Assembly: GCA_022710715.1 (NCBI GenBank)
Contig: JAKLGJ010000003.1
Location: 89,083 to 153,082 of the forward strand
From: Candidatus Omnitrophota bacterium
GTDB lineage: Bacteria; Omnitrophota; Gorgyraeia; Gygaellales; Profunditerraquicolaceae
DNA: 64,000 bases
Direction of reading: 5' to 3'
Below, one piece after another: positions 8,501-62,564 of the stretch; position 1 is the stretch's first letter; every line of letters starts with the position of its first letter. The notes beneath the pieces were generated by a model that worked only from the letters and a program-made list of their open reading frames with translations, had not been told where the DNA came from and made no database searches. The position numbers were made by a program, and so were the translations under genes.

Positions 8501-8530
8501 CCACCCCTGCGATCCGCGAGCGTCCCTGGA

Positions 8531-15173: not shown

Positions 15174-15444
15174 AGTCTCTTCCTTTCGTTTAATGTTGTT
15201 ATCCACCAGGGTTCTATAGTAGCTTAAAGACAAATAAAGTAAAGTGGCCGTTTCCACTTTTTATTGACTTTCTTCCACTTGAATTATTGGCGTATCCGAC
15301 TGCGGTTGAGTGGGATTTAAACCTGCTGAAAACGCTTTCAATATGACAATTGTAGCATAAAATCAGCCAAAAAACAAACTTATTTATAAACTTTTTACTA
15401 ACCACCGGCTTAGCCTGAATTATTCGAAATTCTAACCATCACCC

Positions 15445-31546: not shown

Positions 31547-31564
31547 GCTTTCTCCTGATCGCTG

Positions 31565-31597
31565 AAAATAAAAAACCCAAGGCAGCGATACCTTGGG
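31565..31597 (-). terminator. Strong intrinsic terminator 8 nt upstream of the RBS of giant gene A1, a putative transcription attenuator
   Basis: Minus-strand CCCAAGG-TATCGCTG-CCTTGGG followed by TTTTTTATTTT. A second GC hairpin CCCGCTGCCAAATGCAGCGGG lies at 31631-31651, further upstream. Confidence 0.6.
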
Positions 31598-31796
31598 TGA
31601 AAAAAACGTTCCCTTTGGTAACGCAGCCTCCCGCTGCATTTGGCAGCGGGACTGTCGCTTTGCGCCCCCCGATTACTCGAGGTTTGCCTTTATCAGTAGA
31701 ACTCTTCTTCTACTTACCTATTATTACTATTATATTTCCAACATATTAAGTATAGCACATTTTTGCTAAATTTCAACCTTACCAATTGCACAATTA

Positions 31797-34900: not shown

Positions 34901-37900
34901 CAGCTGTCATTTCGGCGTTCTTTTCACCACTCTTGCCGGAATGTTCCACCTCGTTGCGCGGAAAATGAATGATCCCTTCCACATCGAATCCCTGGTCCTT
35001 CAGATCGATGTAACCCGAGCGCTCCCCGGGTTCGGTAGAGGCGATCACGGAGTTGGAAATGCGGGTGATCCCGCTGAATCCGCTGCGGGCGCTGAATGCA
35101 TCCCACCCCTTCTGTCCTTCGCTGATCCCTGCGACAATGCGATGCTCGATCCCGTGGTCCTGGAGGCTCTGCGGGATCTGCGCGGGATCGTTGATATGCG
35201 CGTAGCCGGTGATCGCAACTGCTTTCGCGCCGGGATTCTTCTCCAGGAAATCGGAGATGTATTCTCCCATATATTTACCGCGATTCACCGCTTCCTCCTC
35301 GGCTGTCCATTCTTTCTTGCGCATGTCTTCGGGCATATCCATGAAGACCACATCCAGCCCCGCGTCTTGAGCGGCTTTGATCTGCTGCTTAAAGCGGTGC
35401 GATAAGCGGGTTCTCATGGCGATGACATCTGCGTCCTCGACTTTCAAATCCGACTGGATCTCGAAAATCGCATGCGTGGCGCCCGCATCCTTAAGCGCCT
35501 GCATCTGCCGCGCAAAACCCCGCTGCAGCCCGTTATTTCCGTGATTGGTATCTCCGATCACCAGCGCCCTGACGCCCTGCATCAACTCTGCGTAAGGCAC
35601 CTGCGCGCGCCAGCCCTTCTCTACCAGCGCGCCCCAGGGCGTATCCGTATGCATCCAATCGTAGAGGCTTTTTGGATTATTCATCAAAATACTGGTAAAC
35701 GCGTTTTGCCTGTTCGGCTCTTGTTGCGCGCGGCCGATCAATCCGCCGACCGCATCCTTGATCCTGGTCAGAACGGAGCCTTGCGCTTGAGCCTCTTTGT
35801 CCGGCACTGTCGGAAGGTTTGCCGCTGGGCCGTCGCTGGAGATGATGAAATCCGCGTCCCCGGGCGCGGCCTCGCAGTCCGCGCTTCTTTTTTCCGCTAC
35901 ATAGCCATTGCCGATCGTTCCCGAATCTCTGGAAATATCTCTCTCATACACATTACCCAGTATGAACGGCAGCATTCTTTTCAGCTCTTCACTCGGCCTG
36001 AAATGTACGCTTTCCTGTACCGGTTCCTCATGATACGTATATTCGATATCTTCTACCGCACCTTTGTCATCGAATTTCAACCTGAATGAAGCGGAATCGT
36101 GATGCGGAGCCAGGACTTTCCTGCTCACTGCAGCGCTGATTTTGTCCGCGAGATTCTCGCCCTCTCCTGCGGTGCTGCCGGTACTGCAGCTTTTCAGAAC
36201 CACCAAAGCATCGTCAGCCAGGCGATCGCTGATCTGGCTCAACCGCTCGGCGTTATTGAAATCCAGGGACATCTGCGCTGTTTTGTAAAGATACTCTTTC
36301 ATCCCTTCGGCCAGAACCGGATAGTCGGTTTTCATCTGCCGCAAAGCGCTAAGAGCCTGAATGATGGATTGCTGGCGGGCATAGATCGCCTGATAGCTTT
36401 CAGAAGCGGCAAAATAATCCGCCTCCAGCGGCTTTAAAGCCGCGTACCCGTCCAAGACCCGCTGCCATTTGGCATCGATTTCCGCCTGGGATTTGCCCTC
36501 GGATAACGCAGCATCATGCTCCCTATGGGCGTCTTCTATTACGCGCCTCTGGGCAAGCAGTTTATCCATTGCGGATTCCTGCGTTATTCTCGCCTGCGCG
36601 GCAGGAGCTTCGATCTCTTTCAATCTTTGCTCCCAGCTCTGCGTTTCTATGCCGGCCAGGGTCTTTTCGACGGCAGAGATAAATTCCTGCACCCCTCCTT
36701 CAAGATACCATTTTGCTCCGGCTACGCTGTTCAACTCACCCACGAGAGCTTCGATCTCTTTCTCCTGGTCGGCAGAAACAAGGTCCGGATTTTCCCGGAC
36801 CAACCGCTGCAAAGACTGCTCCAGGGACTGCACTGCCGCATAGGTCTTTTTGAATATCTGACTGACCTTATCCCTGCCGGCATCCATCCAGTCGGTAAAT
36901 TCCATTCCCTGCTTGCCGCCATGGCCGCCCAGAAGCAATAGATCGGCTTTCTGAACGAGAGTGGACTGTTTGATAAAATCGATCGCTTCATCCATATCTT
37001 TGACCACTTTGTGCGCCACGTCGTAACCGCGATCCAGCAGGGCCTGGACATGGTCATAACTCCCGGCAAAAGCGCCGTTCCAGTCGCTTTGCGGCAATAC
37101 CACCACCGCTTTTTTCTTCGCAGGCTCTTTGCCTTCCGCGCGCAAACCCTCGTTGTGAAATTCCTGCGCTTTCTGCGCGATTTCCCGCTGGCGCTCGGCG
37201 CCGGCTTCTTTGTCGTTCATCCACTCGCGCAGCTTATCGCCCAGTTTACCGTCGGCGATATCCCGATCGGTAACTATGCCTTTTTCTTTGGCGAATTGCT
37301 TCCAGGCGTTCAGTTCCGCGAGCTCATGCCGCGCCTTGGCCTCGTCGCGCGCGTAAACCGCGTTCTCCCCGCGGCCGGCGTGGTCAGCCTCGAAACGGCC
37401 GTCGATGATCACCAGCGTCCCGTCGGCTTCGATGCGCAGTTCGCCGTGTTCAGTCTGTATGCGGCCGCCGGCCTTCTCGACGCGCGCTCGCAGATCGAAA
37501 CGGCCGTCAGATCTTTTGCCCGCGCCGATCTCATTACCCAGCGTATCGATGGTCTGCGCGATCTTTCCCGCCTCATGATACGCCTCGTGCTGCGCGCGGG
37601 TCGAACCGCCGTTATTCCCGCTGGAAATGGCCGGATCAAGAAGCGTATCCGCGAGCCCGTTGACCATGCCTTCTAAATCATCTAACCCGGGCAGCCGTTC
37701 CACTTTTACAAATTCTTTTCCGATATTCCTGCTCAGATCATCCACATTATTCCGGTCGATCGCAGCTTTAAAAACAGTAATAATGCTCTGGCCGTTTTTG
37801 GCCGGATTGAAATTGGCGCCGACGCTCACCAGTACTTGTTTACCGTCGCCGAAATCGGTCATGAACTTGACTTTATCCTGGCCGGGAACCATCCAGCAGT

Positions 37901-40900
37901 CGCCGCGCTCTATGGCTTCCACCGTTTTAGCCAGCATATCCTGGGCAGACATCTCATTGCGCGCCAGCACATGTTTATCCACGGCATGGCTCATCCCGTA
38001 CGGCTTAACCCTGTTTTTCTTGCTCGATCCCTTGCCATTGAGCTCGGTAAGTTCGGCTGCCTGTCCATCGGAAATCCCCGGTTTGATCGCCACTTCGAAT
38101 ACGTCCCCGAACTCATGGCCGAACTTCTCTTCGATCATTTCCCTGGTCAATTCCGGGACTCCGATCGTGGTCACGGCGGTCTCCGCCATATCCAGTATAT
38201 CCTCATAGATTTTCTTATACTCCCGGCTATCCTCCCCGAAAGCATCTCTGGCCTTTCTCAACTCGGCTATTTTGGCGTCGATATCATTCTTTGCCTTGTT
38301 TAATCCGGATGCCAGATCATTGATGCCGATTTGGGATCCGACAACCGCGTCTTTCAGGCTGAAGGAGAACTTCGCCCACAAACTATTGGTATAAAATTCG
38401 TCTTCCAGCTTGGCGGCCGTTTGCTGTCGTATTTCCCGGGCCTCCTGCGAAAGGGTTTTGTCATTAAGCCAATCCTGCATCTTACCGCCCAGAACGCCCT
38501 GTTCGATATCCTGCTCTGTGGCGATCCCCTCTTTAACGCTGAATTCCTTCCAGGCGCCTGATTCCGCAAGCTGCTGTCGGGCTCCCTTGATATCCGCGGC
38601 ATACACCGCATTCTCATTCCGGCCGAAATGATCCGCGCCGAAACGTTTGTCGATCATGACCATCGTGCCGTCGTCTTCTATGTGCAGAGAACCCGTAGCA
38701 GTTTTGATCGTTCCGCCTGCAGCGTCGATCAAAGCCCTGAAGTCGTACTTATTGTCGCTGCGCAGCTGCGCTTTAAGCTCCGCGCCGATCGAGTTGACCA
38801 CTTCGCCGATCTTGTTCTGCTGGTGGAAAAGATCATGCTCGATCCGGGAAGAGGTATACAGCGGATTATAAGAAGGATTTTGCTTAACGGTTCCCGTGTA
38901 CCGCGGCACCATCATGAAGGGGATCCAGCTCAAGATGCCGGCGTCCTGGGCAGTGATCCCCAGATTGTCCCGCGTCCAGTCGTTGTTGAGCGCGGCGTCG
39001 GTCCCGGAGGTCAGTAACGAGAAAAACACCGCGTTATCAACGTGGTTATAGAGGCCGTCCAGGGTTCTGGGCGTATCCAGCAGCCAGTTCGGACGAGCAG
39101 CCAGTTCCGCAGCAGTTAATTCCGCGTCGGTTTTGATTGCGGCTTCTGATGTCGCAAGCCGGACATCCGTGCCTAGCGCGGTTTTCAGCGAACCGCGCAG
39201 ATACCCGTACTTGCCGGTGTTCGCCGCCCAGCGCGAAACCAAACCCTCGCCGCCCGGATCGAGCACACCGCTGGTAGCGCCGAATATTTCCGTAGCCGTG
39301 CCCAGCCACAAACCGGTATCTTTGGGAGAGCTTGCCGCGCTTAAAGCCATATCCTGGTACCAGGGCAGGTTTTCTTCGCCGCGCGGGCCTTTCATCTGCG
39401 CCAGGTGCGGATCCCAGTGCAGATTCAATTCGCCATTCTCATCGAACAGGAACGACTCGCCGAGTGATTCCAGGCCGGTGCCCACCGCGTGGAATAACGG
39501 ACCCACGCCGATAAACGTAGTTGCGCCGGTCAAAGAATCGGACGCAATCTTGCCGGGGACCTCGGCATAATTCTCCACAATCTTGAGCGTATTAGCTCCC
39601 CAGCGGGTCAATGTGCCGTAATTCTTAGGCGCTGCCTGCACCGTATTGGCTAACTCGCCCAGGCGCGTAGCTTTAGAAAAAATGCCTGCCCCCTGAATTA
39701 CGCCGGAGAACAGAAATCCGCTGCCGAACCCCTGTTTGGCCGATCTGGCCACCTGATCCCACTTGATCTCTTCGCCGCTGATCGCCGAATAAGCGATATC
39801 CGAAGCTGCGGACACCCCCGCCCAGACTGCGCCGCTCTTTGCCGCGCCCTGCACGAACCTGGCTGCGTTGAATCCTTTCTGCGTATCTGCGATACATCCG
39901 CTTAACGTCCCCGCCTTACTCAAAAGACTTTCCGAACGCACGGCAACGGTTAACGCCTCTTCGGCTGCGCCAAGTTTGGCAACCTGCCCCAGTTTCGCCG
40001 CTTTTGATCCGATCTGCGCTATCTTGCTGCCCACGGCAGCTTCTTCATCCCCGGGCCAGGGAGTCAACGCGGTCACGATCATCGCTCCCGTAGATACCGC
40101 ATCCAGCAGAGCGTACGTCTGCTCCGTACGGGTTAACGAACTCATCGCGTCTTGCGTGGCGGGCAATTTCTCGCGCATCTCATCCGTGGTAAAATAAATC
40201 TTTTCATCCTGCCCCGCCGATGCTGACGTAACCTGCTGCGCCTGCGGCCCCTGCCCCAGATACGCGTCCCATTTGTCGGTCGCAACAAACGCCGACGGTA
40301 TCGCGCGCAGATCGTTGATCCCCAGCGGAGCGGGCAGGCCGTTGATCCATCCGGAAGCTATATTCTGTCCGGCAACATTCCTGTATTCCTGCGTCTGGTA
40401 CGCTTCGGGATGAGCTTTAAGATAATCCTGCACTTGCTGCAACTGCGCCTGTTGTTCCCGGGTATCCGCTGCGCCAGGCATGATCTTGCCGATGATCAAA
40501 GCAGCGGGAATAAAAGCGCCCAATGCGCCATTGACGCCTGTCCGGACCGCAGACTGTGAATCAGCTTGAGCCAGTATCTCTTCTCCTTTAAGCGTTTTTT
40601 CCACCGAACCATCTTCCAGTTTGTTCCATTCATTGCACTGCTCCTGGAGCGAAGCTTCTTCGATCTTTGGGCTCTCATACCAGTAGGTCATCGAGCCGTT
40701 CTGGTCGATACCGCAGCCGATGCGGATAGTAGACGTACTTGACTGCGTGGGCATATCCACGATGCTCTCGGAAACCGGCCGCAACTCCTTGCCATGGACA
40801 TACCCCGTCTTGACCTGGTCGTTTTCGGTATAGGTGACTTTTTCTTCTTCGCCGTATAGCCAGCTGCTCACCGAATCCAGCAAAGGCACGTCATGCAGGT

Positions 40901-42644
40901 CAAAGAAGCCTTCGCCCTTGCTATTGAGTATCTGCGACTGGGAAACAGTGTACGTCCGGTTATCCGCTCCGGTAACTTTCACCGCGCCCGGCGTTTCGCC
41001 GGGAGCCGTCTGATAAAATACCTGGCCGTCTATTTCGATGCTTTCCGGGTTGTGGAATGCGTGCTCGGCCTGCAGCGTCGGCAATGGATCCCCCGTCACC
41101 AGAGAAGTGAACCTGGCCACGCCGTGCTGAATGACTGCCAGCGGCGAGGTCTTTCCGGACACGACATCATCCCAGGTGTAATCCGCGGTATTGACCGGCG
41201 TGCCGGAAGTCAATTTTCCCTGATCGTCGACGGTATACATCATTTTCTTGTCGTCATTGGCGCCGTCGATTACCATGATCGTATTCCCGTAAACCTCGAC
41301 TCCGGCATTGGCGGGCAGAAGCATGGAATTATTCCCGACCGTAATTGTTTGCGTCGCTGCCCGGCTATCGGATTCTGTTGAAGGATCCGGCGCGCTATCA
41401 CGTGCAGTAAGCGCTAAAAGACCTGACACTATCGATGTGGAACCGGCATGAGCGCCCGGGAGGCTTTTATCAGCGCTGCCGGCAAGCCCGGCGCATAAAG
41501 AAAGACCGGCTGCGCCTAACCCTGTAACCGGGGCTGCAGTCAACGCTGCAGTCAAAAGGCTGCCGCCCTGCGATAAAGCATTCTCCACCGCGCTTGTTGA
41601 TCCGGATGCGGAATCCCGGGACGCTGCCCCCGCGTTCAGACCGGTCCAGGAATTAACCGACTGCGTCAGCGCGCCGGACAACGAGCTTACTGTGGAACTC
41701 GCGGAAGTGGCGACAGCGTTCAAGCCGGCGGTAACGGCATTAGCTGCGCCGCCAAGGAAGTTTCCCGCTGCCTGCGCTGCGCCGTTTACCGCACCCCCGA
41801 TCGCGCCCAGGATATCCAGGCCGGCGCCGGAGATCTCCTGCATCTGCTCGACAGAAAGCTGCACGCCAACCGGCTGATCGCAAGTCAATGCGAACCCGGT
41901 CCATTCTTTTTCGAATATTTCGCGGGACAGGCGGGTAACGTGGTTATTATCAGTGTAGGTCACGAACGAGTCATTTGCGCCGATCAGAGTCACATAATGA
42001 CCCTGTCCGTTACCCAGGTCGAGATGCACAATGGCCGGATTATTCAGCGCGGTCAGCTGATCATAGGTCATCTGGGTCCCGTACATGTCCAGGCCGTATT
42101 GCCGGGCGACGTTCTGAATACCGAACATGCTGGTCTGGCCGTTCTGGGTATACGGTTCAAGATTCCGCGCAAGGATAGAAGAATCTACGCCGGGCAGGAA
42201 CAGGGTCAACGATTGCACCGCGCAATTATACTGCACGGGACTAAACGAAGCGACTGCCGCGGAATTGGAAAAACCCGGTGTGGAAAAGGCCGGCTGCAGG
42301 GAAGAAACCTGCGGAGCGACAAAACTCCGCAGAGATGGCGGGCTGAAACTGCTTAACGCGCTGGCTGCCGGTTGGGTGAAGCTCGGGCTGGAGAACGAAT
42401 TCGCCGGCTGGGAAAGAGTAAGGCTGGCAGGCTTGGAGAAACTGATCCCCGTTGATTGCAACTTGAGCCCGGAAGATGAAGTTGAGGTTGATGACGAAGT
42501 TAAAGTCGATGATGTGCCGCAAGACGGAGCGCTGAAATCGAAAGCCTGGGCGGGAATGGTTTGATTGGAGATGAAGCAAACGAGAATAAAAATACTAACA
42601 CAACGAAAACCGACTCGCTGTATTCCGTGGCTTTGAGGGAGCAT
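31926..42644 (-). CDS. Giant secreted multidomain protein A2 (3572 aa), a paralogue of A1. It has an N-terminal C39-like papain-fold peptidase domain, the family A core, and duplicated modules.
   Basis: Signal peptide RVGFRCVSIFILVCFISNQTIPAQA. A Ser-rich low-complexity linker follows. The C39-like region (NCAVQSLTLFL...PAIVHLDLGNGQGHYVTL) is at about 41890-42255. The core shared with A1 is at about 38900-40375 (ENLPWYQDMALSAASSPKDTGLWLG). Tandem modules of about 120-180 aa (DGTMVMIDKRFGADHFGRNENAVYAAD and DGTLVIIDGRFEADHAGRGENAVYARD) are at about 37150-38750. Two modules carrying conserved GGHG and LxSCSTG motifs are at about 36170-37115 and 32480-32990. Confidence 0.8.
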   Translation of the reverse strand: MLPQSHGIQRVGFRCVSIFILVCFISNQTIPAQAFDFSAPSCGTSSTLTSSSTSTSSSGLKLQSTGISFSKPASLTLSQPANSFSSPSFTQPAASALSSFSPPSLRSFVAPQVSSLQPAFSTPGFSNSAAVASFSPVQYNCAVQSLTLFLPGVDSSILARNLEPYTQNGQTSMFGIQNVARQYGLDMYGTQMTYDQLTALNNPAIVHLDLGNGQGHYVTLIGANDSFVTYTDNNHVTRLSREIFEKEWTGFALTCDQPVGVQLSVEQMQEISGAGLDILGAIGGAVNGAAQAAGNFLGGAANAVTAGLNAVATSASSTVSSLSGALTQSVNSWTGLNAGAASRDSASGSTSAVENALSQGGSLLTAALTAAPVTGLGAAGLSLCAGLAGSADKSLPGAHAGSTSIVSGLLALTARDSAPDPSTESDSRAATQTITVGNNSMLLPANAGVEVYGNTIMVIDGANDDKKMMYTVDDQGKLTSGTPVNTADYTWDDVVSGKTSPLAVIQHGVARFTSLVTGDPLPTLQAEHAFHNPESIEIDGQVFYQTAPGETPGAVKVTGADNRTYTVSQSQILNSKGEGFFDLHDVPLLDSVSSWLYGEEEKVTYTENDQVKTGYVHGKELRPVSESIVDMPTQSSTSTIRIGCGIDQNGSMTYWYESPKIEEASLQEQCNEWNKLEDGSVEKTLKGEEILAQADSQSAVRTGVNGALGAFIPAALIIGKIMPGAADTREQQAQLQQVQDYLKAHPEAYQTQEYRNVAGQNIASGWINGLPAPLGINDLRAIPSAFVATDKWDAYLGQGPQAQQVTSASAGQDEKIYFTTDEMREKLPATQDAMSSLTRTEQTYALLDAVSTGAMIVTALTPWPGDEEAAVGSKIAQIGSKAAKLGQVAKLGAAEEALTVAVRSESLLSKAGTLSGCIADTQKGFNAARFVQGAAKSGAVWAGVSAASDIAYSAISGEEIKWDQVARSAKQGFGSGFLFSGVIQGAGIFSKATRLGELANTVQAAPKNYGTLTRWGANTLKIVENYAEVPGKIASDSLTGATTFIGVGPLFHAVGTGLESLGESFLFDENGELNLHWDPHLAQMKGPRGEENLPWYQDMALSAASSPKDTGLWLGTATEIFGATSGVLDPGGEGLVSRWAANTGKYGYLRGSLKTALGTDVRLATSEAAIKTDAELTAAELAARPNWLLDTPRTLDGLYNHVDNAVFFSLLTSGTDAALNNDWTRDNLGITAQDAGILSWIPFMMVPRYTGTVKQNPSYNPLYTSSRIEHDLFHQQNKIGEVVNSIGAELKAQLRSDNKYDFRALIDAAGGTIKTATGSLHIEDDGTMVMIDKRFGADHFGRNENAVYAADIKGARQQLAESGAWKEFSVKEGIATEQDIEQGVLGGKMQDWLNDKTLSQEAREIRQQTAAKLEDEFYTNSLWAKFSFSLKDAVVGSQIGINDLASGLNKAKNDIDAKIAELRKARDAFGEDSREYKKIYEDILDMAETAVTTIGVPELTREMIEEKFGHEFGDVFEVAIKPGISDGQAAELTELNGKGSSKKNRVKPYGMSHAVDKHVLARNEMSAQDMLAKTVEAIERGDCWMVPGQDKVKFMTDFGDGKQVLVSVGANFNPAKNGQSIITVFKAAIDRNNVDDLSRNIGKEFVKVERLPGLDDLEGMVNGLADTLLDPAISSGNNGGSTRAQHEAYHEAGKIAQTIDTLGNEIGAGKRSDGRFDLRARVEKAGGRIQTEHGELRIEADGTLVIIDGRFEADHAGRGENAVYARDEAKARHELAELNAWKQFAKEKGIVTDRDIADGKLGDKLREWMNDKEAGAERQREIAQKAQEFHNEGLRAEGKEPAKKKAVVVLPQSDWNGAFAGSYDHVQALLDRGYDVAHKVVKDMDEAIDFIKQSTLVQKADLLLLGGHGGKQGMEFTDWMDAGRDKVSQIFKKTYAAVQSLEQSLQRLVRENPDLVSADQEKEIEALVGELNSVAGAKWYLEGGVQEFISAVEKTLAGIETQSWEQRLKEIEAPAAQARITQESAMDKLLAQRRVIEDAHREHDAALSEGKSQAEIDAKWQRVLDGYAALKPLEADYFAASESYQAIYARQQSIIQALSALRQMKTDYPVLAEGMKEYLYKTAQMSLDFNNAERLSQISDRLADDALVVLKSCSTGSTAGEGENLADKISAAVSRKVLAPHHDSASFRLKFDDKGAVEDIEYTYHEEPVQESVHFRPSEELKRMLPFILGNVYERDISRDSGTIGNGYVAEKRSADCEAAPGDADFIISSDGPAANLPTVPDKEAQAQGSVLTRIKDAVGGLIGRAQQEPNRQNAFTSILMNNPKSLYDWMHTDTPWGALVEKGWRAQVPYAELMQGVRALVIGDTNHGNNGLQRGFARQMQALKDAGATHAIFEIQSDLKVEDADVIAMRTRLSHRFKQQIKAAQDAGLDVVFMDMPEDMRKKEWTAEEEAVNRGKYMGEYISDFLEKNPGAKAVAITGYAHINDPAQIPQSLQDHGIEHRIVAGISEGQKGWDAFSARSGFSGITRISNSVIASTEPGERSGYIDLKDQGFDVEGIIHFPRNEVEHSGKSGEKNAEMTADSTSLTEIGKESGGQLPSASVRVQYEEKVNDDWRTWRNENEKKIFDFVVNNFDGLNNNQKAQLAMKLYAYAFSRGKRGMEGSVVDIQFVAGRDPYFLIKTVDPGSRPYDPAKDYSSVTEEYEISLEHLQDIFDVKNLFGEIPDNLLEGREIDVQVSSPEAIPKLLPLIVQQKDPAKIKVSQDYDFGPMGVRVQDKNWGWLPMISENEFVFTPVEEAFRKAEGLVKHFNLYSSGAMSYGLGLSASPNLMHDRPWEHIGDSALDRFLNAQEWLGAKAENWVKDRTSSAYRANQILWEIGKIHRPFTEGILKSRIDLRSINRQECESMLEELDRQIDLIGSSIKELDRVAASPLQVVRKAENKEKGQKALEQAKETYNQLLDIRDYIRLQKDLIPENSGRRELQAADDAQNEVDINLAAGGAEKATHTAVNEHVKANLPADLLADKTNIKNYPLAEGCGAAARVIPIEGLLEKTGQLAHIGLGRVYGEAVIYVDAEHAANQRVLEHELYEINAWQEKAKELRQEYSFASESVAEQMREWIRYCPEDAIAFDRETHAKAPAIDDLLPAPEKKPGSEAARERTFEEHYPEELGMSAQSKAELENISRHIPDIVEQMRESMKDAKLSLENVAQLQEIGPYLKENADIILNSCSTGAVTPGDNVNLATEVSKALGDRRTFGAQHSSSSMRIDFSDKGAIDKVNYAVHYDGVMEVRMEGAPVKRDGECFVAGGTAARETIEKDAKTKIAVILTPSSDHNGAFKERDLEEQLKSSGYEVRTKEVNSLTQAVEWIKNSNEPGSIDLLVIGGHGTPRSLQLGNGNDPFAAYRDIRKTVVGPVMKFLAENPGMYSPEQRNEMLRYVRALTKFANSWFFYGNGPEVIGHYGNEMSASFKQTSFKLDKENSERNRIVLTPEQWQAHPLAASLGVYRQRYAALDKELQAEGACAPQTELAFRTVSELTAKAEKSGLNAAEREKLLSACRELYQSLDSMPGYGDLNL

Positions 42645-42786: not shown

Positions 42787-42913
42787 GCAGACGCTTTCCC
42801 CATCCGCATGTAGCACAAAGATTTACAAAAATATTATTTGGCACCGCTAAATTGACGCATAAATAATATTTTTGCAACCGACTGCGGCACATGCGGATGG
42901 GGAAAGCGTCTGC
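42787..42913. repeat. 127-nt intergenic inverted-repeat element, copy B
   Basis: It ends 2 nt before the stop codon of giant gene B1 and lies upstream of the A2 start. Its arms and core match copy A. Confidence 0.75.
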
Positions 42914-42915: not shown

Positions 42916-45900
42916 TTACAATAAGGCTATGAGTTCTTTCAGGTCTGATGGAGTTGAGATAGCGCGCTCTTCTTCCATCTCCAGGATCGCGCTCACGCAA
43001 TCCACCACCTGCTTTTTCTGCTTCAAGGCATCCTGCCGGCCTGCACACGCCACCAGCAATTCTTTCATTTCCCGGCAGGGCATCTCGCCTTTAGCCATGG
43101 TTTTGCGGATATCCGCCCAGCGTTGATCCAATTCCGCCAGGCTCAATCCGGCCAGTGCTCCGGCAGCGGCTGCGTCAATCGGCGCGACAGCCGGCAGCGA
43201 CTGCACGGGCAGCGCCCGCATATCGATACCGCCGAGATCCGCAGGCGCCTGGGCATTCTCAACCGGCAATCCGCCATTCAGCAGGGCTTTCTCAACAGCC
43301 AACCGGACATACTCGTCCAGGATCTCTTCTCTGGACTTGCCGCTGTCGATCAGCGCCACCAGCATGGGGAAGAACGGCTGATTCCAACTAAGTCCGGCAA
43401 GTTCGCGCATCACGAACTCACTACGCCGCCCATAATAAGCCAGCGGAGCGATCATCTTATAAATACTATACTCTTCAATGCCCGCAGCTTTTCCCTGAAG
43501 CATCAGTTCGTTCGCAGCCTGCAGGCCGCCTTCCACCTTGATCAACTTACCGAGATGATTTTCTTCACGTTTATTCAACGCCTGTTCGAATGCGGCGATA
43601 GCGAAGAAACGTTCTTTTCCGCTATCCCCGACCAGTTGTTGATTGACCACATCGGCATTGAAATCGTTGCAAAGCGCCTCATACACCACCGTAGACATTG
43701 CTTCGGAAGCCAGGTTAACCTCGGGATGATTCTTAGCTGCGCTGAACACCGCCACCATCATCCTGGCCGTTTCCGCGCGACGGCGCGTACCGCTCAAACG
43801 GAAGATATTGGCGTCAATATTCAATGACAGCGGATACGCCATCCCGGGCTTGAATCCCGCTTCTGTCATCAACGGGATCAATTGTACCAATTCAGCGCTG
43901 AATGCTTCGGCCTCCCGGACGGAAAAACTCCGTTCCAGCGTGCCCCTGAAAATGCTCTCCAGAATGTTATTAGTCATCACTGCATTGATGCCATTTCTCC
44001 GCATGACCGGCAGCAATTTGATGACCGCCTCTCGCATTTGCGCGCCTTCTTCAGGATGCATAGCCTCAACAGCGACGACGATTTCATTGATATCATTCGG
44101 CCCCAACCCCGCTCCGGCCAGTTGCAGAATCAGCCGGCCGTTTTTCTTCAATACCCCGGCGCTCTGTTTCAAACCCTTAAGCCCCTCAAAAACAGACTTG
44201 AATACGGCGTACGAACTCTCCTTCTTGCCGCCGTCAGTACTTTCCGTTGTTGCAACCTGCCGCTTCCAATCTACAGCTGCAAGAACTTTGCATAGATCCA
44301 GCTCGTAGCCGGCCATCGAAACCACATCATCGACCAATCCACTGGTCTTAGCTTCCTGCACTTCAGCCTCATCGGGACCGGCTGCCACCATGAATTTCAG
44401 CGGCCGCCGCTCTCTGCCATTGGCCCGATCAAGCTTGTCGAGCTGGCGGACAAACCAGCTTCCGTTTTCCTTGATCAACTTCGGCATCAACTCATCGAAC
44501 TTTTCCCAAAATTCGTCTTCGCGCATCGCCCGGGTGAACTCCGCTTCGTTGCGATCGAGCCCGAACCGTTCGAACTGCTTCCACGTCCCGCCCATCGGGA
44601 AATCGTTATCCGAGATGACGATATCGATGCCGCCGCGCTCCTGCGTCACCGCCTGATACAGGCCGAATGCGGTATAAGCGTCGCCGGCGACAAAGATATT
44701 TTCCGGTTTCACTCCGATCCCCGCCAGTAATTGCTCGATACCTATCTGCCAGTCGATTTCGTCTATCACCACCAGAACTTTCTTATCCCGGATCTGCTCG
44801 CCGATCTTCTCCGCCACCAACGGCACCAGCACAGTTTCGACCAGAGGCCGGTACATATAGGAAGTAGTCTTTCTCGATTGCTCGACAGCAGCGATCGCTT
44901 TATCGAGAGTAACCGGCACGGTTGCCCCGCTATGAGATAAGCGTCTTGCCTCTCCGGTCAACCTGTCTGCTCCGGCGGCAAAAGCTGTTTTGATCCCGCT
45001 AACGATCTTCTCGCCTGTCGACATTTCCTCCTCGAAAACAAACCCGGCAGCTTCAGCCAGGTCCCGGACTACCATGGGAATGGTAATCTCCATTCTCGGT
45101 TTGCTGACTATCGCCGCGATCATTCCCCTGGACTTGGCCGCCTCGGCACCCGACTCTTCCGGATCGGCGCCGGACGTCCAGATGATCGGGATATCGATCC
45201 CCTGCCCTTTGTTCACCTGCTGAATCTGATCAGCCAGCCACAAGCCATCTTTCTCCAGATGCTCGGCGCTGAACGGCATGCTGTGGTCGGTGCTGACCAG
45301 ATCGAATGCGCGGCCCTGCGCGATCGCTTCCCGGTACTTCTCCAGTGCTTCCACCGGATTGCCCGCTGTTTCTATATCGGAAAAACCCAGCGAACGGTAC
45401 ATAATGGAAACGAGTTCACGCATTGCTTTTTCATCATCCACCACCAGGATACGCTTATCGCGCGCGTATTCCCGGACATCCTTTTTGACCAGTTCAATCA
45501 AACTAAAACTCAATCTATCGTATTCACGCTGATTGCGCGTTTGCATGGCGAGCGTATACGCATCTTTTATCTCCTTCGCGCGCGCGCCGCCGTCGCCGGG
45601 AATTTCCGCCACCGCTAATCCGTCCAGTGCCGACTGTCCTGCCGCGAATTCTTCCAAAACGTTCTGACGCTGGAACAGCTTATGTTCCAGGCTCTTGATC
45701 TTCGCTTTGCTTAATTTCATCCTTCTAGCCAATCCTGCGTCGCGGACTCCGCCCCTCATCCGCTGCACTTCCATATCCGCCAGACGCTCTTTTTCTTTAA
45801 GAAGGATCTGCTGCCATCTGGCATAGTTCTTCCCGCCGTCCAAAGAACCGACCAGGAACACGTCGTCGGCAGCCGGAATAACCCGCTCATTGCCCTTGTA

Positions 45901-48900
45901 CTGGCCGTTGGGATCAAGGCCGTCTTTTCCGACAATAACCAGCCACAACCCGATATCCTTGCCGTCCCTGTCGACGATTGCAGCGGTATCATAGACTTCG
46001 CCGCCGTTAACCTCGGCCTGCATCCAGCTATACCCGTTCATGGTCAGGACACCGAGATTTTCCAGTTCGTGAAGCAAAGCGAAGCGGATTTCCTGCCTCG
46101 TATCTCTATTAACCGCTTCATCCGTATATACGTTAATAAAGATATTGTCGCCTTTTTTAAGCTTCGACCAATCGATGGTCTGATCTTTACCGGCGTACTC
46201 TTTAGCTTTTTTTACCGAGATGACCGGATCCTTGATGCCGTTTTTGGCCAGAATACTCTCCAACTCGTCTATAACGTTCACTTTGTTGGTATAGAGCAGC
46301 GGCGACATAAACTCTACCGGTAACAGGAACGACGCGCGATTAAGGATTGCGCCGGGCTGTTCAAGAGTCAACCGGTCCTCCTTCTCCTCTTCATCAGCCT
46401 GAAAGGACCCAATAGAATAGTCTCTTTTGAGCATGCTCATGATATCAGGCAGTTTTTGATTTATTTTGTGGTTAACATAGCGGCCTGCAAGAAACACCCC
46501 GACGATCCCGGCGAAGACGCCAAAATACACCGCAGTAGCAACACCCAGGAATTGCATGATTATTAAAGCCGGAATAGCAACGAAGCCGAACCCATAAATG
46601 CTGGTTGCCGGAAAAATCCTCTTGCCCATGATATATTCCAGCAACTCGACGTCCGGAAGATTGTCCATTTGGTTCCTGAACAGAACCTCGTTGACAGTAA
46701 CAATGTCCAAGTCCTTTTCGGGGATGCTTCTCAACTCCTTGATCACCTCGTTGACCGGCCGCGAATTCCTGTCCAGGGTTTGATCAAGGAACAGGTTCGT
46801 CCCTATTTCGCGAACGAAAGCGTCCAACGCCAGATATCTTTTGGCACCGGTGAATAAAGAATACGCACCTACCAGCACCAATGGCACCCCTGTTATCAGA
46901 CTGCCGATGGTTGTGGCAGTCAGCAGCAGAAAAGCGCCGGCACCGGCAATCGTCGTATACATCCCGAGAGCAAGCATAGATTTCTTCCGGGCTTCGGCGA
47001 ACAATGCTCTTAAGGCAGTGAGGCTGCGCGCGCTGTTAAGCCCTTTCCTCTGCATGTCGAATACGGTTTTGTATACTTCATGCGCGGGATATTTGTCCGC
47101 TTTAGCGTCGATCCCGGTGAACTGCTCTTCTATCAGCTTGTTCTCCTGTATCTTCTTGAGCGTCTCTTCTTTCCCGCCGTCCTGAACCTCGCCTTCCACT
47201 TCAGCCCTGGTCTTTTTGAACTGATCGTTTACTCGTTCAACCGTCAGATATCCGCCCAGATAGACAATCCCTGCAACGCACAATCCCAGCACCACCCCCA
47301 ATACGCCCATTATCGGCGAGATCATGCCTACCAGGACAGCCCCTATCAATCCGCCGGAGGCAATCACAGGCGCTGCGGCAAAACCGCTCCAGAGCATCTC
47401 ACGCGTCCTTAAGAAGCCGGCATATCTTTCGATCGCCCCGGGTTCCTGCTTCAGTTTATTCACCAGGAACCTGAATTCCCGCTCCATCTTTTCCCTATCC
47501 CTGCGCAGGATATCGGCATAATAGGCTTCACGTGACGGCTCTTTCAGCTTGTGCCTGTCATAATACCCTTCGTCGAAATTATATACGCTCATAATCGCTT
47601 TCATCTGCGCGTACACCCGCCGGTTGCCGCCGTCGCTAGTTCTTTCGTCTGCCTCGTCAACGATCCGGCCGTCTTTTTCCCGCGCAAACTTCTCCGCCAG
47701 CTCGACAATATCCTTAACGCCGGCCTCGTCCATCGCGCGCTTGATCCCCTTGACTGCGGATATGACCATGGCTTGCGAGAAAGCGTCGTTGGAGTAATCT
47801 CTCCAGGCAGGATCAGGATTTATTCCGCCTTTATTGAGGATGAGCGTTCCGATGCTTCGTGCATGTCCTAAAACCTCTTTTTGCCAGCGCACGTAGGCAG
47901 CCAGGCCGAAAGCCGTCACCGCCCCGACAGCCGCGACCAGGCCCAGGGGATGCGCGATGAACATCACGAACCCTGCGGATCCCAGCACGCCTAAACCGAT
48001 CAATCCCGGGATGCTGTATTTCGCCCGATCCTGTCTTTTTTGCGCGAAGGCAACGTACTCCGACAGCTCCTGGTCGGTATACTTCTTCGCGGTCAGATAG
48101 TTCCTCGCTCCTTGTGCGGCTTGATCGATCTGCCCGACGACGTCGGACTCTCGAGACGCATTGCTCTGCAGCAGAATAAACAATCGTTCGAGCTCGTCAG
48201 TAAGCGCGTTCCAGCGCTTGCGGGTTTCGGACGTGATTGTGATTGAAGACGCCTTCAACGTGCCGCCGTCGACGGCTTGCGGATCAACCGCATCGGTCAT
48301 CGACGCGGGGATCTCTATCCTGGTCACCCCGGTAACGACATCCTTGGTCCTGTTCACTTTCCCCGCCCAATAAAAACTCCTGGCATACGACCGGTAGCTT
48401 TCTCCGGTCAATCTGCCCCGGATATACCCATCCGATATATACCGCGACCCGCTCGAGTACTCGTCATTGGCCAGGATAACTTCCATGCGCTGTCCGTTAT
48501 TCAACACTACCGTAACCGGGACCCCGTACAGAGCGACGGATTTAAAATCCAGCGAAATCTTATCCCAATCCGACTTTTTCAGGAGCGCTCGTTTAGTGTA
48601 CGTTCTGGGGCTCATCAGCTTGATTACCGCCGTAAGGCTGGAGCGCTGGCGCTTTTCCAGTTCGGGATTTTCAGCCATCGTTTCATAGATCTTGACCGCT
48701 GCCGGCCGGAACATGGCCAGCTCAACCAGCCTGTGAATGAGCGTTCTGAAAGTTTCCGCATCATACGAATCGGTTCTATCGATGAAATCCCACTTATCCC
48801 CGAAATGCAGGTGATCGTATCTCTCGCGCACATCCCTTTCCGCCGCTTCAAACGCGCTGTCTATACGGTCCTGAAGCGAGCCGCCGTCGTTAACTTCGGC

Positions 48901-51900
48901 GGACTGCTCGTCAGACTTCTCCTCCGGCGGGGCCAGGAACTTAACCGTCACCCGGTACTTGCTGGTCGGCGAGCTTATCTTGAACGTTCCTGCCGGCGAT
49001 ATCAGGATCAGGTTATCAGAGCCTTCTTCCAGATAAATCTTCCAATCGCCGGTATAGCTGATCTGAAAAGGAACGACATATTCTCTCTGGACCTTGTCGG
49101 TTTCGGTAATCTTCGTTTGCTTGACTTTATTCAGAGAAGAAATGATCAGCGTCTTTTTACCGTTATCCCTGTACCAGACAATAGTCCCATGCTTACGGAA
49201 AGGCACAACCAGCAGATCAGCGCGCACCGCCTTGTATAACTCATCCAGCGCTTTGCCTTCCGCGCTATTGCCCTCCGAGCTATTTTCGAATTTTTTCGCC
49301 CGGATAGCCAGACCGCGCAGAACGTCGGCTGCGCGTATTGCATCTTCGCGACTATCCACCTCCGCCAGCTTGATCTCCTGCGCCTGCGTCGCATCATCCC
49401 CGCCGTCGTTACCGGCAGCATCATCGGCAGACGCGTCTTCTGCAGTCTTCAACATCAGGGCAATACCGCGCGCGCCTATCATCGGGTCGGATTCACCGGT
49501 CAAAGTACCCATTGTAAGCATGGACCTATATTCATCGGACTTGACAGGTTCCCGATACTGCGCATGATCAACGTGAACCATAAGAAACGGCGCCAGGGCG
49601 TTCGCTTTCCGGTCTATCCCCGTGATCGCTTTAAACACGTTGTCGTAAATCGATTTGCTGTCGAGGAACGCATACAGAATAGAATACAGCTTCATTTGTT
49701 CCCGCGGAGACCAGTTTTCGTTCACCACTTCATTCCACGTCTTCCCATAGGTGATAGCTTCCGCTGCAAAAAATATCTTGATCCGCTGGCGGATAGTCAA
49801 CCCGTCTTTTACCATTAATCCGCCATCCATACCCCTGAACGAACCGGGACCGTCTCCCCGCGCCGGCGGCTCCACTTCGCCCATGGTCCGCAGCACCTCG
49901 ATGGCGTCGCGCAGTTCCATAGCATAGATCTCTGAGCTACGCTGCGCAACATCCTGCGGTTCCACCTCAACGGCCAGAATATCCCTTCCACGATGGATCA
50001 CCGGCAACCCGTCTTCGTCAGTCTGGCTACCGCTGATATACAATCGCTCCGGCATCAATTCGAGGTATGGCGTGATCGCGGTGCGCTTGAATGCCGGCTG
50101 CATCTTGATCTGCGCAGCGACCTGCTGCAGCTGGAGATACTCCCGCGCGCCCGACTGCTCGCCACCGCGCACTTTGGCCAGGCCCCAGTCCCACAAAGCC
50201 ATCGCCCAGCGGTCATACAGCGAGACCTCGCTTGCCAGTTGTCCGCCGTCGTTGTCCGTTTCGCGCGCCGGGATCTCCATGCCCACAATCCCGCCGACTG
50301 CGCCGGTAGACTTGCGCTCATGACCGGCCAGATAAAAAATATGGCTGCGCGGCTGCTCTTCTCCGGCATATTTCCCGAAGAAGCCGTTGTTGGTATAGCT
50401 GGTCCTGTTAGAAAGAATTACTTCTTTTCTCTGGCCGTTCTTGAACACCACGGTAACCGGAATGCCGTACCTGCTCACCAGGCCGATGTCTTCAGCGACC
50501 AGATCTTTTTCCGCAAACGTATCGACCTTATTCAGAAGGTCCTGAACGGAATAACTCCTCGGCCGCAGCAATTCGACCGCCTGCTGCAGGACAAACTGCT
50601 GGCGCTGGCTCATGCCGCCTTTTTTGAGCATCCGCTCATATTCTTCTACCGCCGCAGGTTTATACAATGCCAGGTCGATCAGCCGGTGGATCACGGTCAA
50701 TTCCTTGCCCTCGCTGTAATGCTTGCGCATGGATTTATACATTTCCCGGTCGCTGAAATGCAAAGTGCCGAATTCCCTGTCCAGTTCTTCTTCCGCCGCA
50801 TCGAATATTATATCGATACGGTCTTTGATCGTTCCCCCGTCGTTATCGGCGTCGCGCGCCGGGATCTCCATGCCTACGACCCCGCCGATCGCGTCGGTTT
50901 CCCCTTTGAAAGGCTTGCCTCTCCAGTACAACAGCATCATCCTGTCGTGCTCATCTCCGGCGTACTTCACATAGAACTTACCGTTGCTCAACCATTCCGG
51001 CCCGTGATCATAATGGCTGTTGTACAGAAACACTTCCTGCCTCTTGCCGTTCTTGAAAATGACCGTAACCGGAATACCGTAATCGCGCACCATACCCAGG
51101 TGATCGGCCATTTCCCGCGATATTTCTTTCTTGCTGAAATCCACTTTCCCGTACACCCGCGGAGTCAAAAGATCAACTACTTTGGTTAATGCCGCCCGGT
51201 CGCGCTTATTCGTCCCGGGATCAGCCAGCAACTCTTTGTAGAGGTCCAGCGCTTCCGGGATAATGATACCCATGGTCACCAGCTCACCGATAAGCAAGCG
51301 TTCGATCTTATCCCGGTACTCGTCAGACAAACTCATATAGAAATATTTTTCCCGGTTATGCAAATTATTGTACTCCTGCGCAAATTCCTTATCCGCGGCT
51401 TCGAATACGCGCCGCACCCGGTCGCGCATCCGCTGCCGAATCGTCCCCCCGTCGCTGGCCTCCGAATTGAGGACTTGCTCGGCCGTCGCGTTAGTTTTCG
51501 CCATCTGATAGGTAAAAATAGCCGGCAGCCAGGCAAAAAATGCGGTGGCGGCGAGGCCAATTTCCAGGCTGTGAGTGAACAAACCGCCAAAAATTCCGCC
51601 TATAGCGATGAACAATCCACCTATGATCATGCCTATGGCCATCATCCAGTTTTTGGCCCAGTAGAAATTACTCTTACCGCGGGATCTGGAGTAAGAATCA
51701 CCGGCGGTATCGGTATAAGCGTTCAACCCACCCACCAGGTCAGGCGCATGTAAAATTGACGATATCAAATAGAACATTCCAGGATACAAGCCGAGAATGC
51801 TGGCTGTGATAAAATCCGTAAATATTTTAGTCGTGGCCAATGACGGCACAGCCAGCATACTTACCACCAGTGCAACCGGCAGAACAAAATAAATCAGCGG

Positions 51901-53396: not shown

Positions 53397-56300
53397 TTAT
53401 GATATTGCCAGTTGGATAATTTCCTTCATTTCACCGGCAGTAGGAAGCGCACGCTCCTCTTCCATTTCCAGTATCTGCTTGATGAACAATACCGCTGTAT
53501 GCATCTGCTGCGTTGCATCTGCGCGGGCATTACATACCGCGACGAATTCTTTCAGCTCCCGGTACGGCATGGAGCCGGATTTCACTTTCTCCTGAATGTT
53601 CAACCATTTGGCGTCTAGTTCGGCCAGCGGCATCTTCATCGCCTGCGGCATTGACTGCAGGATCTGCGCCGGATTGACCGCGCCGATCACCGCCTGCGAC
53701 TGGATCGGCAGAGCCCGGAAATCCACGCCGCCGGTGTTATCAGGCGTCTTCTTGGCAGCGGCAGCGTCCGCTACTGCCTGCGCCGGGCCGGATTTCAGCA
53801 GCGATTTAAGCTTTTCAATGATCGCCGTAAATCTGCCGCCGTCATTTTCTCCCAACTCATTGAACAAAACCTTTTTAGCAGGTTCATTCAACTTGTCGAT
53901 ATTTTCTTCGATCAGCGCATACACAAAAGGCTGGTCTCCGGCCGCTTCCAATCCTCTTTCGGCGATTATCTTCTCTTCCGCCTTTGCGATATGCACTAAA
54001 GCTTCGGCCGTCTCGTCAAGATCATACCGGCCGTCTTCGAGTATACGCCAGAGAGCTCTGGCTTTGAGAATATCCTTCCCGTTATCGTTATAGTCCCAAA
54101 GAAGTTCCGCAATTTCCTGAACATTATTTTTCGTTTTTATCCCGGCCTGATCCATCACCAGCAGCAAAGCGACTTGAGCTTTGATGCTGAACGGGGCAAT
54201 TTTACCCAACGCTGTTATCGCTTCAGAAACTCTCTTTACTTCGCCCGATTCAGGAATATAATCCTGCTCTCTGCTGAAACGGGTCAAAAGCATCGGCACG
54301 TACAAAGTGAGACCAAGCTTCTCCTGGACGATTTTACGGCTGACGTCCTGACTGTCTGTTCTGATTATCCTGCTATTGATCAAACCTAAGGTCACTCTGG
54401 CGGGTTCGCTTGAGGCAAACTCGTCAAGTCCGGTCACGGCGTCGATACGCTGTTTCAATGCCCCGTCGGCCTCGATGTCAATGAACAGACGGAGCATCCC
54501 GATGGTGAAAATGATCTTATTCTTCACATATTCTCTGGCAAAAGGATCTTTATTTTCGATCCCTTCCATCAGATTTGCCAGATACTGCGCATACTGTTTG
54601 TTTTCCAGCATATAATTCATATCTTCAATTTCGGCAATGAGAGGCTCGCCGACTAACGTGCGAAGCTTGATCGAGATATTTTCGTTAACCAGCGGATCTT
54701 TTCCGCCGTCGAGGTCGTCCAGGTCCAATCTGGCAATAGCATTACGGTACACAGCTTGCACTGCTTCGTAATTACTGCTGCTATTTTCTATGACGTCGAT
54801 TTCCTCTCTGATGTTTCGCATCTGGCCCGCAGTCCTGTTCGCGAGCGACATACTGCCATACATCGGCATGTTTCGCAAAGACCGATAATTCGCCCGCAGT
54901 TTTTCAGTTTTCTTATTTGCATCATCAAGGGCGCCGTCTATATTCTTAATCATCTGTGTGAAGAAAATCTTCAATCCCGCGCTGTCCCTGCTTTCTACAA
55001 ATTGTCTTACTTCCCTCAAATCGACCGTGCCGTTTGACCCCTCTTTCATTTCCTCAACGATTTCGGCCTTGAATCGATCGATCTTCAGGTCATGCGCCAG
55101 CGCATCCGCGAAGGCCTTGAGCGCTGCATTGGTCTCAAGAGGATTGTTGGATTCGGCAAAGAATGCATCGTCTTCCACTATGCCCGCGTTGATCAATCTT
55201 ACCAGTTCTTCAGCAACCGCCTCGCGGATTCTCTGCGCATCCCGCGCCTCATCCGGATCATTGATCAACTGGTAGAACGTTGACAACGCCGGACCATTGA
55301 TCGACTTTTCACTTCTGAATATCGTTCCCAAAGCCCGCACTATGGTTTCCCTTAAAGAAACGTGGGCGGCCGATTTTGAACCCAACAACAAAGCTGTGAT
55401 CATTTCAGCTTTCCGTTGGTCGTTAGCTTTCACCAAAGTAACCATATCATTAACCGTCTCGGTCAAATCGGATATCGTACTATTCTTGCTGGCGAATCTA
55501 GTCAGCGCTATGCTTGAATTCAATGCTAAAGAATCGATAACAGCCGGATTCACGGCTTTCAACGTTTCGCGCAAACCTGTCAGAAAAGCAATGTTATTCA
55601 TTAACCCTTCATAAACAACTGCCTTTTCAAGAATGGAATAATCATTGTTTGCTACGGCGATCATCGTTAGCGCTTCCGCAGCAATAGCTGTTTCCCCCTG
55701 CGAGCTGCGATCAAAGTTCGCGATGATGAAATCAGCTGCCGGGAGATAACCCAATTTACCGAGTTGCTGAATAATTTCAATCTTTTCTTCGAAATCCATC
55801 TTTCCATAAGCATTGAACTGCTTGGTGAGCTCCTGGAACCTTGCCATTTGGACCCGCCGCTCTTTGGTCAACCCGCCGTCAGAGACCTCGCCATTGATCT
55901 CGTCAAGTTCAGCCAGGGCCAGTTCGGCCTGCTTGCGCACTGCCATGGACTCCTGGTCATTTTCGTTGTAATTATTATTCAGAACATCATGCAGAACATC
56001 TCTGGCGTACTGCGTGTTGATCCGTTTTAACGCCCAGATCGCTTCCCGCTTGACTTCGAGAGACGCGATAGCGCCTTTACTCAAGATCGCCGCCAGGCTC
56101 TGAACAGCCGCCACAGGCTCGAACCGGAACAGATCAGCCACAGCCCGGATCGCGGTAATGCGCGTTCTTTCCGCTCTGGGATCCGCCCTGTAGGTCTCTC
56201 CCTGTCTCACCTGCATCGCCGCAATCACCGCCCGCAGAACATCAACATTGCCGACTTCAGTCAGCTTCTGGATCGCTGCCCTGCGCAACCCCGTAGACTT

Positions 56301-62468: not shown

Positions 62469-62564
62469 GGGAGACTCCTTCTCTTTGTCTCCCCTCCCCC
62501 ACAACATTGTGTTTTAAAAAAAACCCGGTTTTTAAAAGACTCTTTGCTTGCGCAATAGAGATCG

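Follow-up and report, generated by a model that had tools for sequence, protein, structure and literature searches.

An intact and a degenerate receiver domain within one module of a giant Omnitrophota protein

The B1 gene and its two receiver domains

We analyzed a 64,000-nucleotide stretch of DNA from a Candidatus Omnitrophota bacterium (assembly GCA_022710715.1, contig JAKLGJ010000003.1, positions 89,083 to 153,082; the whole stretch is called the window, and positions are counted from its first letter). An initial annotation of the window, made from the sequence alone, had placed two CheY-like receiver (REC) domains at positions 44330-45470. This interval is enclosed by an uninterrupted minus-strand open reading frame (ORF) at 42916..53172 that encodes a protein of 3418 residues, here called B1. 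The gene is the third in a row of four giant minus-strand genes, G3036 (53397..62507), B1, G3572 (31926..42644) and G4335 (18632..31639), and G3572 is immediately downstream of it. A protein from JGI metagenome 3300009776 (P0002) is a partial gene call of B1 that covers residues 966-3418. Three plus-strand ORFs (44390..44656, 45259..45618 and 45278..45532) are short antisense frames inside the 10-kb ORF and were not taken as genes. Pfam matches of B1 to TadF, Peptidase_M28 and MatB were weak and below threshold, and were disregarded. No adhesin-type domain was found in B1, and the contrast that had been drawn between a signaling protein and a passive adhesin is baseless.

Judged by its sequence, the first receiver domain, REC1, is a genuine receiver with a complete active site. 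The Pfam family Response_reg (PF00072) matched residues 2575-2692 with 34.4 bits when all of B1 was searched and with 40.2 bits (E 4e-10) when the excised domain was searched, compared to a curated gathering cut-off of 30.2 bits. With REC1 as the query, a sequence search of the PDB returned 54 chains of receivers (E<=1e-3); those of two hybrid kinases, CKI1 (E 1e-9) and SLN1, ranked best, and many CheY entries came next. Matches in NCBIfam were all sub-threshold, and all were to response regulators (CheY) or hybrid kinases. The PDB alignments and an alignment with twelve database receivers both place D2579, D2580, D2629, T2666 and K2691 of REC1 at the positions of D12, D13, D57, T87 and K109 of CheY, that is, the acidic pair, the phospho-acceptor, the threonine and the lysine of the active site. 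The one peculiarity of REC1 is an insertion of six residues in the beta3-alpha3 loop. By homology, the domain is expected to have the (beta-alpha)5 fold.

The second domain, REC2, is homologous to REC1 across the whole domain. BLASTP aligned the two over 173 columns with 36.2 bits (E 4e-8), and the highest score among 1000 shuffled sequences was 23.1 bits. Comparison of REC2 to a small REC profile with hhalign gave a probability of 92% (E 6.5e-7, 126 columns). A hidden Markov model (HMM) built from nine database receivers, with REC1 excluded, scored REC2 at 9.8 bits, and the maximum among 2000 shuffles was 7.4. General searches did not recognize the domain: Pfam gave no match to REC2 at a threshold as loose as E<=10, whether the insertion was kept or removed, and a PDB sequence search matched no receiver. 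A HMMER search of 1.84e9 representative proteins with the linker and REC2 found only B1 itself (as P0002) and a spurious repeat protein (P0003).

Most likely, REC2 is a pseudo-receiver rather than another phosphorylation site. Only two positions of the active-site quintet are retained, namely D2804 of the acidic pair and the acceptor, D2855. The first acidic residue is replaced by I2803, the Thr/Ser position is occupied by M2928 or A2930, neither of which has a hydroxyl, and the lysine is replaced by M2953. With three of the five positions lost, we filed REC2 as a pseudo-receiver. Its helical insertion of ~45 residues occupies the same beta3-alpha3 loop as the short insertion in REC1, and REC2 is probably a decayed duplicate of a REC1-like domain.

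Based on these results, the proposal of two CheY-like receivers in B1 holds for REC1, a canonical receiver, and has to be revised for REC2, which is degenerate. All seven motif strings on which the proposal was built are present at the expected places in the minus-strand translation of B1 (Table 1), and the phospho-acceptor aspartate, whose absence had been named as fatal to the proposal, is present in both domains (D2629 and D2855). The string AAGP is not a receiver hallmark, given the residues found at the Thr/Ser and Lys positions of REC2.

The two domains are parts of a cassette with the order N-terminal helix, REC1, a linker of 96 residues, and REC2. The linker contains no recognizable domain; its sole Pfam match, to MatB, was below threshold (E 0.026). 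An AF2 model of the cassette made from the single sequence had a pLDDT of 41.5 and was uninformative.

Table 1. Positions in the window of the features of B1 and its neighborhood
Feature	Residues (B1 unless stated)	Window positions	Strand	Remarks
Signal peptide and N-domain	1-26 (signal peptide, LEQSGFAQ), 27-395 (N-domain)	51988..53172	-	
Last predicted transmembrane hairpin	2192-2229	46486..46599	-	
DGG, upstream cassette boundary	2527-2529	45586..45594	-	
REC cassette (module s12)	2530-2982 (453 residues)	44227..45585	-	net charge -19
REC1, canonical receiver	2573-2700	45073..45456	-	PF00072, PDB and NCBIfam matches
LVVDDE	2576-2581	45430-45447	-	
DLVSTDHSMP	2624-2633	45274-45303	-	
WTSG	2665-2668	45169-45180	-	
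SKP	2690-2692	45097-45105	-	
REC1-REC2 linker	2701-2796 (96 residues)	44785..45072	-	
REC2, diverged receiver-fold domain	2797-2967	44272..44784	-	homology to REC1
LVVIDEID	2800-2807	44752-44775	-	
DIVISDNDFP	2850-2859	44596-44625	-	
REC2 helical insertion, ~45 residues	2860-2905	44458..44595	-	hhalign and BLASTP alignments
AAGP	2930-2933	44374-44385	-	
DGG, downstream cassette boundary	2980-2982	44227..44235	-	
C-terminal bookend domain	3299-3418	42919..43278	-	starts GGID(M/F/L)R.LP
Example in-frame DGG sites		51970-51978, 47173-47181, 45586-45594, 44227-44235, 61170-61178, 53835-53843	-	
Peptidase C39 domain of G3572	125-257 of G3572	41874..42272	-	Pfam PF03412, 48.5 bits vs cut-off 22
Promoter-like site ahead of riboswitch		31776-31749	-	
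c-di-GMP-I-GGC riboswitch aptamer		31697..31613	-	RF03167, 60.2 bits vs gathering score 59
Intrinsic terminator after riboswitch		31598-31575	-	

Bookends, DGG modules and the neighboring peptidase

B1 belongs to a large, undescribed Omnitrophota family in which conserved bookends surround highly variable cargo. B1 and G3036 share 62% identity over their N-terminal ~390 residues, and both proteins, like their relatives, have a signal peptide with an invariant LEQSGFAQ, an N-domain of ~370 residues, and a C-terminal domain of ~110 residues with the motif GGID(F/L/M)R.LP. We found the N-domain in at least 352 database proteins and in 486 confirmed metagenome stretches. A scan of GTDB with an alignment as the query recovered eight loci (seven in Candidatus Omnitrophota/Omnitrophica metagenome-assembled genomes and one in a genome binned as Planctomycetales), and a scan with a single N-domain sequence recovered none. 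Tandem copies are common, as in the window and in three other loci (L023, L026 and L050); the neighborhoods of two proteins, P0062 and P0102, are cut off at contig ends.

Between the bookends the sequence varies, and the lengths of complete members run from ~350 to >3600 residues. The cargo is of cytoplasmic type and includes phosphoglycerate kinase (PGK), GAPDH, HD, HEAT and PGM/PMM domains; transmembrane hairpins are found there also. An AF2 model of the N-domain, made with a 62-sequence alignment, is confident (pLDDT 83.5, pTM 0.79) and has an alpha/beta fold, and a Foldseek comparison of this model to the PDB gave no significant match (best E 0.5).

The tripeptide DGG partitions two of the giant proteins into modules and may be a site of processing or a linker motif. 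There are 13 copies in B1 (1.3 expected) and 9 in G3036 (0.7 expected), and none in G3572 and G4335. Among the strongly over-represented tripeptides, DGG has by far the most copies in B1 and in G3036. Cuts at DGG would give modules of 82-589 residues, 14 of them in B1. Modules s02, s03 and s07 of B1 are homologous from DGG to DGG, and s10 matches s01 of G3036 from end to end, with the paralogous DGG sites aligned to each other. The two receivers together fill exactly one module (residues 2530-2982). An example of a linker peptide that contains DGG is EIPARDADNDGG/TIKDRID, in which the stroke marks the presumed cut.

DGG is also frequent in one clade of relatives, with 17 copies in L014, 15 in L038, 12 in L033, 11 in L022, and 10, 9 and so on in others (fewer than 1.5 expected in each). 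A lysine or arginine directly precedes the motif ([KR]DGG) at 94 of 152 sites. Other clades have no DGG and are enriched for SSP instead. In three loci without DGG (L054, L055 and L077), SSP is present in linkers in 10-14 copies, 12-16 times the expected number, and it may be the punctuation motif of another clade.

The over-representation of DGG is a property of the proteins and not of the DNA. The window contains 20 copies of the 8-mer GACGGCGG (4 expected), of which 18 coincide with in-frame DGG sites. We rejected a signal at the DNA level. The codon GAC is used before Gly in 58 of 69 cases and GGC before Gly in ~80%, a codon-pair preference common to all ORFs in the window. The nucleotide bias is thus due to general codon-pair usage, and the motif is at the protein level.

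The gene immediately downstream of B1 encodes a protein with a peptidase C39 domain. C39 enzymes cleave after Gly-Gly. In an alignment with the ComA peptidase (PDB 5xe8, 3k8u and 8hf6), residues C141, H216 and D232 of G3572 fall on the catalytic triad. G3572 has 3572 residues and no transmembrane segment, and a signal peptide and a Ser/Thr-rich linker come before its C39 domain. A metagenome scan with the C39 domain found none, and phmmer searches of the family loci and their flanks found only the window's own copy. G3572 also has a weak match to TraG-D_C (residues 3180-3263) and is 36% identical to G4335 over 855 residues.

It is possible, and in our estimation rather doubtful, that B1 is a polyprotein. 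The C39 domain of G3572 would cut after the Gly-Gly of DGG and release ~14 products, including a free tandem-REC orphan response regulator of 453 residues. The excess of DGG in B1 and G3036 but not in G3572 or G4335, module homology that runs from DGG to DGG with aligned sites in paralogues, the shared punctuation in relatives with its preceding Lys/Arg, and the match of Cys, His and Asp to the catalytic residues of ComA are all consistent with this. In addition, West-Roberts et al. have proposed that giant Omnitrophota proteins are cleaved by their C39 and S8 domains, at points that they described as unknown. However, the hydrophobic -4/-7/-12 pattern of classical leaders is absent at the DGG sites of B1, where the preceding residues are acidic or polar. 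Being behind a signal peptide, the C39 domain would be exported, whereas the positive-inside rule (below) puts the modules of B1 in the cytoplasm. The link between peptidase and sites consists of motif enrichment and gene adjacency, no C39 domain was found in the flanks of the family loci, and part of the family is entirely without DGG. We therefore treat cleavage at DGG by the C39 domain of G3572 as a tentative lead and not as a result. If it were true, DGG as a processing site would supply the cleavage map that is missing for the giant proteins of Omnitrophota. The DGG sites bear on the question, explicitly left open so far, of whether a giant bacterial protein functions as a single chain or in pieces.

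Several other features are present in the gene cluster. Palindromic elements of ~127 nt with near-perfect arms of 25 bp (GCAGACGCTTTCCCCATCCGCATGT) are located at 31797-31923 and 42787-42913, where only 2-3 nt separate them from the preceding stop codons (of G3572 and B1, respectively), and there is a weaker hairpin at 62685-62815. Rfam scores for plant miRNA precursors in these elements are an artefact, and the elements are probably long terminators or REP-like hairpins. A two-partner secretion (TPS) pair is downstream of the giant genes on the minus strand and consists of an ShlB/FhaC-type transporter (13443..15257) and a TPS-domain protein of 1595 residues (8629..13416). A TPS homologue that is 45% identical is found downstream of a family gene at 6574-10203 of another locus (L001), which suggests that the linkage is conserved. 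The 4335-residue protein G4335 has a signal-peptide-like start and no transmembrane segment. It contains four MgtE_N repeats, a DnaJ J-domain (residues 2369-2428) and a sub-threshold match to FliG_M near residues 360-520. Here too, content of cytoplasmic type follows a start that resembles an export signal. Three ORFs between the TPS genes and G4335 (16363-16968 and 17129-17683, plus strand; 17777-18445, minus strand) encode two small proteins with borderline PEP-CTERM motifs (19-21 bits vs a cut-off of 20.7) and one CBM96 protein.

Membrane topology and possible roles of the REC cassette

The receivers are in a long C-terminal tail of B1 and not, as the initial annotation had it, between clusters of transmembrane helices. 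We called transmembrane segments by Kyte-Doolittle hydropathy and a Hessa-scale sum. B1 has a first cluster at residues 423-558, with two strong and two marginal helices, and then four tight hairpins (residues 1721-1761, 1933-1972, 2066-2107 and 2192-2229). Hydropathy indicated no transmembrane-grade segment from residue 2229 to 3418, and both receivers are at least 346 residues past the last transmembrane helix in this tail of 1189 residues. In the outer flanks of every hairpin (15 residues) there are 3-4 Lys/Arg, and the loop between its two helices is short (2-4 residues) and uncharged. By the positive-inside rule, a cytoplasmic location of the long soluble modules of B1, including the tail, is favored.

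The cassette may be a switch on the cytoplasmic side that regulates adjacent modules of B1, with its input kinase or HPt encoded elsewhere; we regard the chances of this reading as evenly balanced. D2629 of REC1, a domain most closely related among solved structures to the receivers of the hybrid kinases CKI1 and SLN1, would take up a phosphoryl group from this histidine kinase or HPt protein. The cytoplasmic type of the cargo in other family members fits such a location. REC2 would be a non-phosphorylatable partner, and by analogy to domains D1 and D2 of PleD, phosphorylated REC1 and REC2 could form a conformational or dimerization switch that acts on the neighboring modules of the membrane protein. 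The cassette would then be a regulatory input added to a modular giant protein, and not proof of a phosphorelay or c-di-GMP scaffold.

Several findings weigh against a cytoplasmic switch. B1, like all members of the family, starts with a conserved Sec-type signal peptide (in B1, residues 1-26 with the n-region MFKMINR, an h-region of 12 residues, and GFA/Q in the c-region LEQSGFAQ), and most family members have no transmembrane segment between the exported-looking N-domain and the cargo; L022 and L033, for example, lack such segments. The two marginal helices in the first cluster leave the parity of transmembrane segments, and hence the side of the tail, undecided. The remaining points concern partners and conservation. 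A Pfam scan of 23 ORFs in the window (the four giants and 19 smaller ones, the TPS and ShlB genes among them) found no HisKA, HATPase_c or HPt domain, so the partner kinase that the initial annotation had suggested looking for was not found there; nor did the scanned ORFs contain a recognizable output domain. Searches for homologues of the cassette found generic receivers only, with 35-45% identity and no orthologue, and there was no REC domain in the 97 family ORFs other than B1. The absence of an orthologue and of receivers in the rest of the family means that there is no evidence from conservation for a function of the cassette. With the positive-inside rule in conflict with the signal peptide and an ambiguous number of helices, we conclude that the topology neither confirms nor refutes a cytoplasmic location of the receivers.

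The REC cassette is a one-off acquisition of B1, since none of the 97 other family ORFs has a receiver. On the same result, we rejected REC as a recurrent cargo of the bookend family. As a positive control, the same REC profile detected ordinary stand-alone receivers in the flanks of the family loci. Such receiver ORFs were found within a few kb of bookend genes at L002 6635, L008 14555 and 18842, L024 776, and L034 6429. Receivers are common, and those near bookend genes in other Omnitrophota loci may be there by chance.

The proposal that B1 is a signaling scaffold of the phosphorelay or c-di-GMP type found no support. Nothing beyond the receivers themselves speaks for a phosphorelay scaffold. 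GGDEF, EAL, HD-GYP and PilZ domains were absent from the 23 window ORFs (Pfam) and from B1 itself (Pfam and NCBIfam), and nothing indicates a c-di-GMP scaffold. A c-di-GMP-I-GGC riboswitch, with a promoter-like site and an intrinsic terminator, is located upstream of G4335 (Table 1). The true start of G4335 is probably Met32 (~31546), because the listed start of the ORF overlaps the aptamer. Control of the gene cluster by a cyclic dinucleotide at the RNA level is plausible and is unrelated to the REC cassette.

The conserved signal peptide would also fit export of the whole of B1, with the REC cassette as an effector that disturbs two-component signaling in a host or prey, for example as a phosphate sink. 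We think this quite unlikely. Many family members have cargo such as PGK, GAPDH and PGM with no transmembrane segment after the N-domain, an exported C39 peptidase would be on the same side as the DGG sites, and the cluster includes a two-partner secretion pair (TPS protein and ShlB) that is syntenic in L001. Omnitrophota have been depicted in the literature as predatory or episymbiotic, with the same topology paradox. Export of B1 would, however, violate the positive-inside rule for all hairpins. There is no sign that B1 enters a target cell; we found no known domain for translocation, and the fold of the N-domain is unmatched. Furthermore, the cassette is unique to B1. A combination of export and cleavage seems to us similarly improbable. 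In it, the signal peptide and N-domain of B1 and its relatives would take arrays of cytoplasmic-type modules (REC-REC, PGK, GAPDH, PGM, HD, HEAT and transmembrane hairpins) to the outside, the exported C39 peptidase would cut these polyproteins at DGG, and the pieces would act in or on a host or prey, with the tandem-REC piece as a phosphorelay decoy.

Alternatively, the REC domains could be relics that serve as structural or protein-interaction modules without phosphotransfer. The clear degeneration of REC2 and the lack of cassette orthologues and of a nearby kinase are consistent with this, as is the report by West-Roberts et al. that domains of giant Omnitrophota proteins are highly divergent. 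However, REC1 has a complete active-site quintet and exceeds the cut-off of Pfam, which would not be expected if it had been freed from selection for phosphorylation. We consider it improbable that the domains are relics.

Comparison with known systems

REC1 resembles the receivers of CKI1 (Arabidopsis) and SLN1 (yeast) in its match over the full domain and in all five active-site residues. It differs in its location at residue ~2600 of a 3418-residue protein with multiple hairpins and with no kinase core, HPt or output domain, and in its insertion of six residues in the beta3-alpha3 loop.

The arrangement of the two receivers may be compared to the stem of PleD, which consists of a phosphorylatable receiver (D1) and a non-phosphorylatable adaptor (D2). 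In B1, an intact receiver is likewise followed by a degenerate domain of receiver fold. Unlike PleD, B1 has no GGDEF or other recognized output domain, and REC2 has kept its acceptor Asp, has an insertion of 45 residues, and is separated from REC1 by the linker.

The C39 domain of G3572 aligns to the peptidase of ComA and, like ComA and PCAT1 (PF03412), has the catalytic Cys, His and Asp, with candidate sites that end in Gly-Gly. In contrast to these enzymes, it is not fused to an ABC transporter and is located behind a signal peptide in a protein of 3572 residues. The putative sites in B1 are internal and repeated, and they do not have the amphipathic leader pattern.

MARTX proteins are giant autoprocessing multi-effector toxins with conserved termini, variable central effector modules and a cysteine protease. 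As a functional analogy only, B1 also has conserved termini, a variable array of modules and an associated cysteine protease. There is no kinship in sequence or fold. B1 lacks RTX repeats, its associated protease is part of another protein, and the motif for cleavage differs.

The closest comparison by phylum is to the giant proteins already surveyed in Omnitrophota, and the receivers in B1 are a new instance of a feature known from them. A 2023 preprint (West-Roberts et al.) includes CheY-like receivers in the domain content of giant Omnitrophota proteins, and PF00072 is counted 105 times among 916 long proteins in a 2026 preprint on complete genomes. By word searches of the two preprints, the bookend family, the DGG modules and the pair of intact and degenerate receivers are described in neither; the searches met no mention of a polyprotein or of a double-glycine or GG motif, and the passages on cleavage that they showed name no site. 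A literature search on polyproteins and peptidase C39 found nothing relevant. The receivers as such add little, given that CheY-like domains are already catalogued in giant Omnitrophota proteins and that the cassette has no orthologue. Their context matters more: B1 is one of a large undescribed family, in one clade of which DGG is over-represented ~ten-fold between cargo modules, and the catalytic residues are intact in the neighboring double-glycine peptidase.

B1 has only 3.4 thousand residues, below the thresholds of 10-30 thousand residues used in the surveys. It shares with the surveyed proteins the phylum, a signal peptide, many transmembrane helices, CheY-like receivers, and a neighbor in which a C39 domain is beside a signal peptide. 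The topology of these proteins is presented as a difficulty in both preprints (West-Roberts et al. 2023 and the 2026 complete-genome preprint), and B1 sharpens this paradox, with domains that depend on the cytoplasm placed behind a signal peptide.

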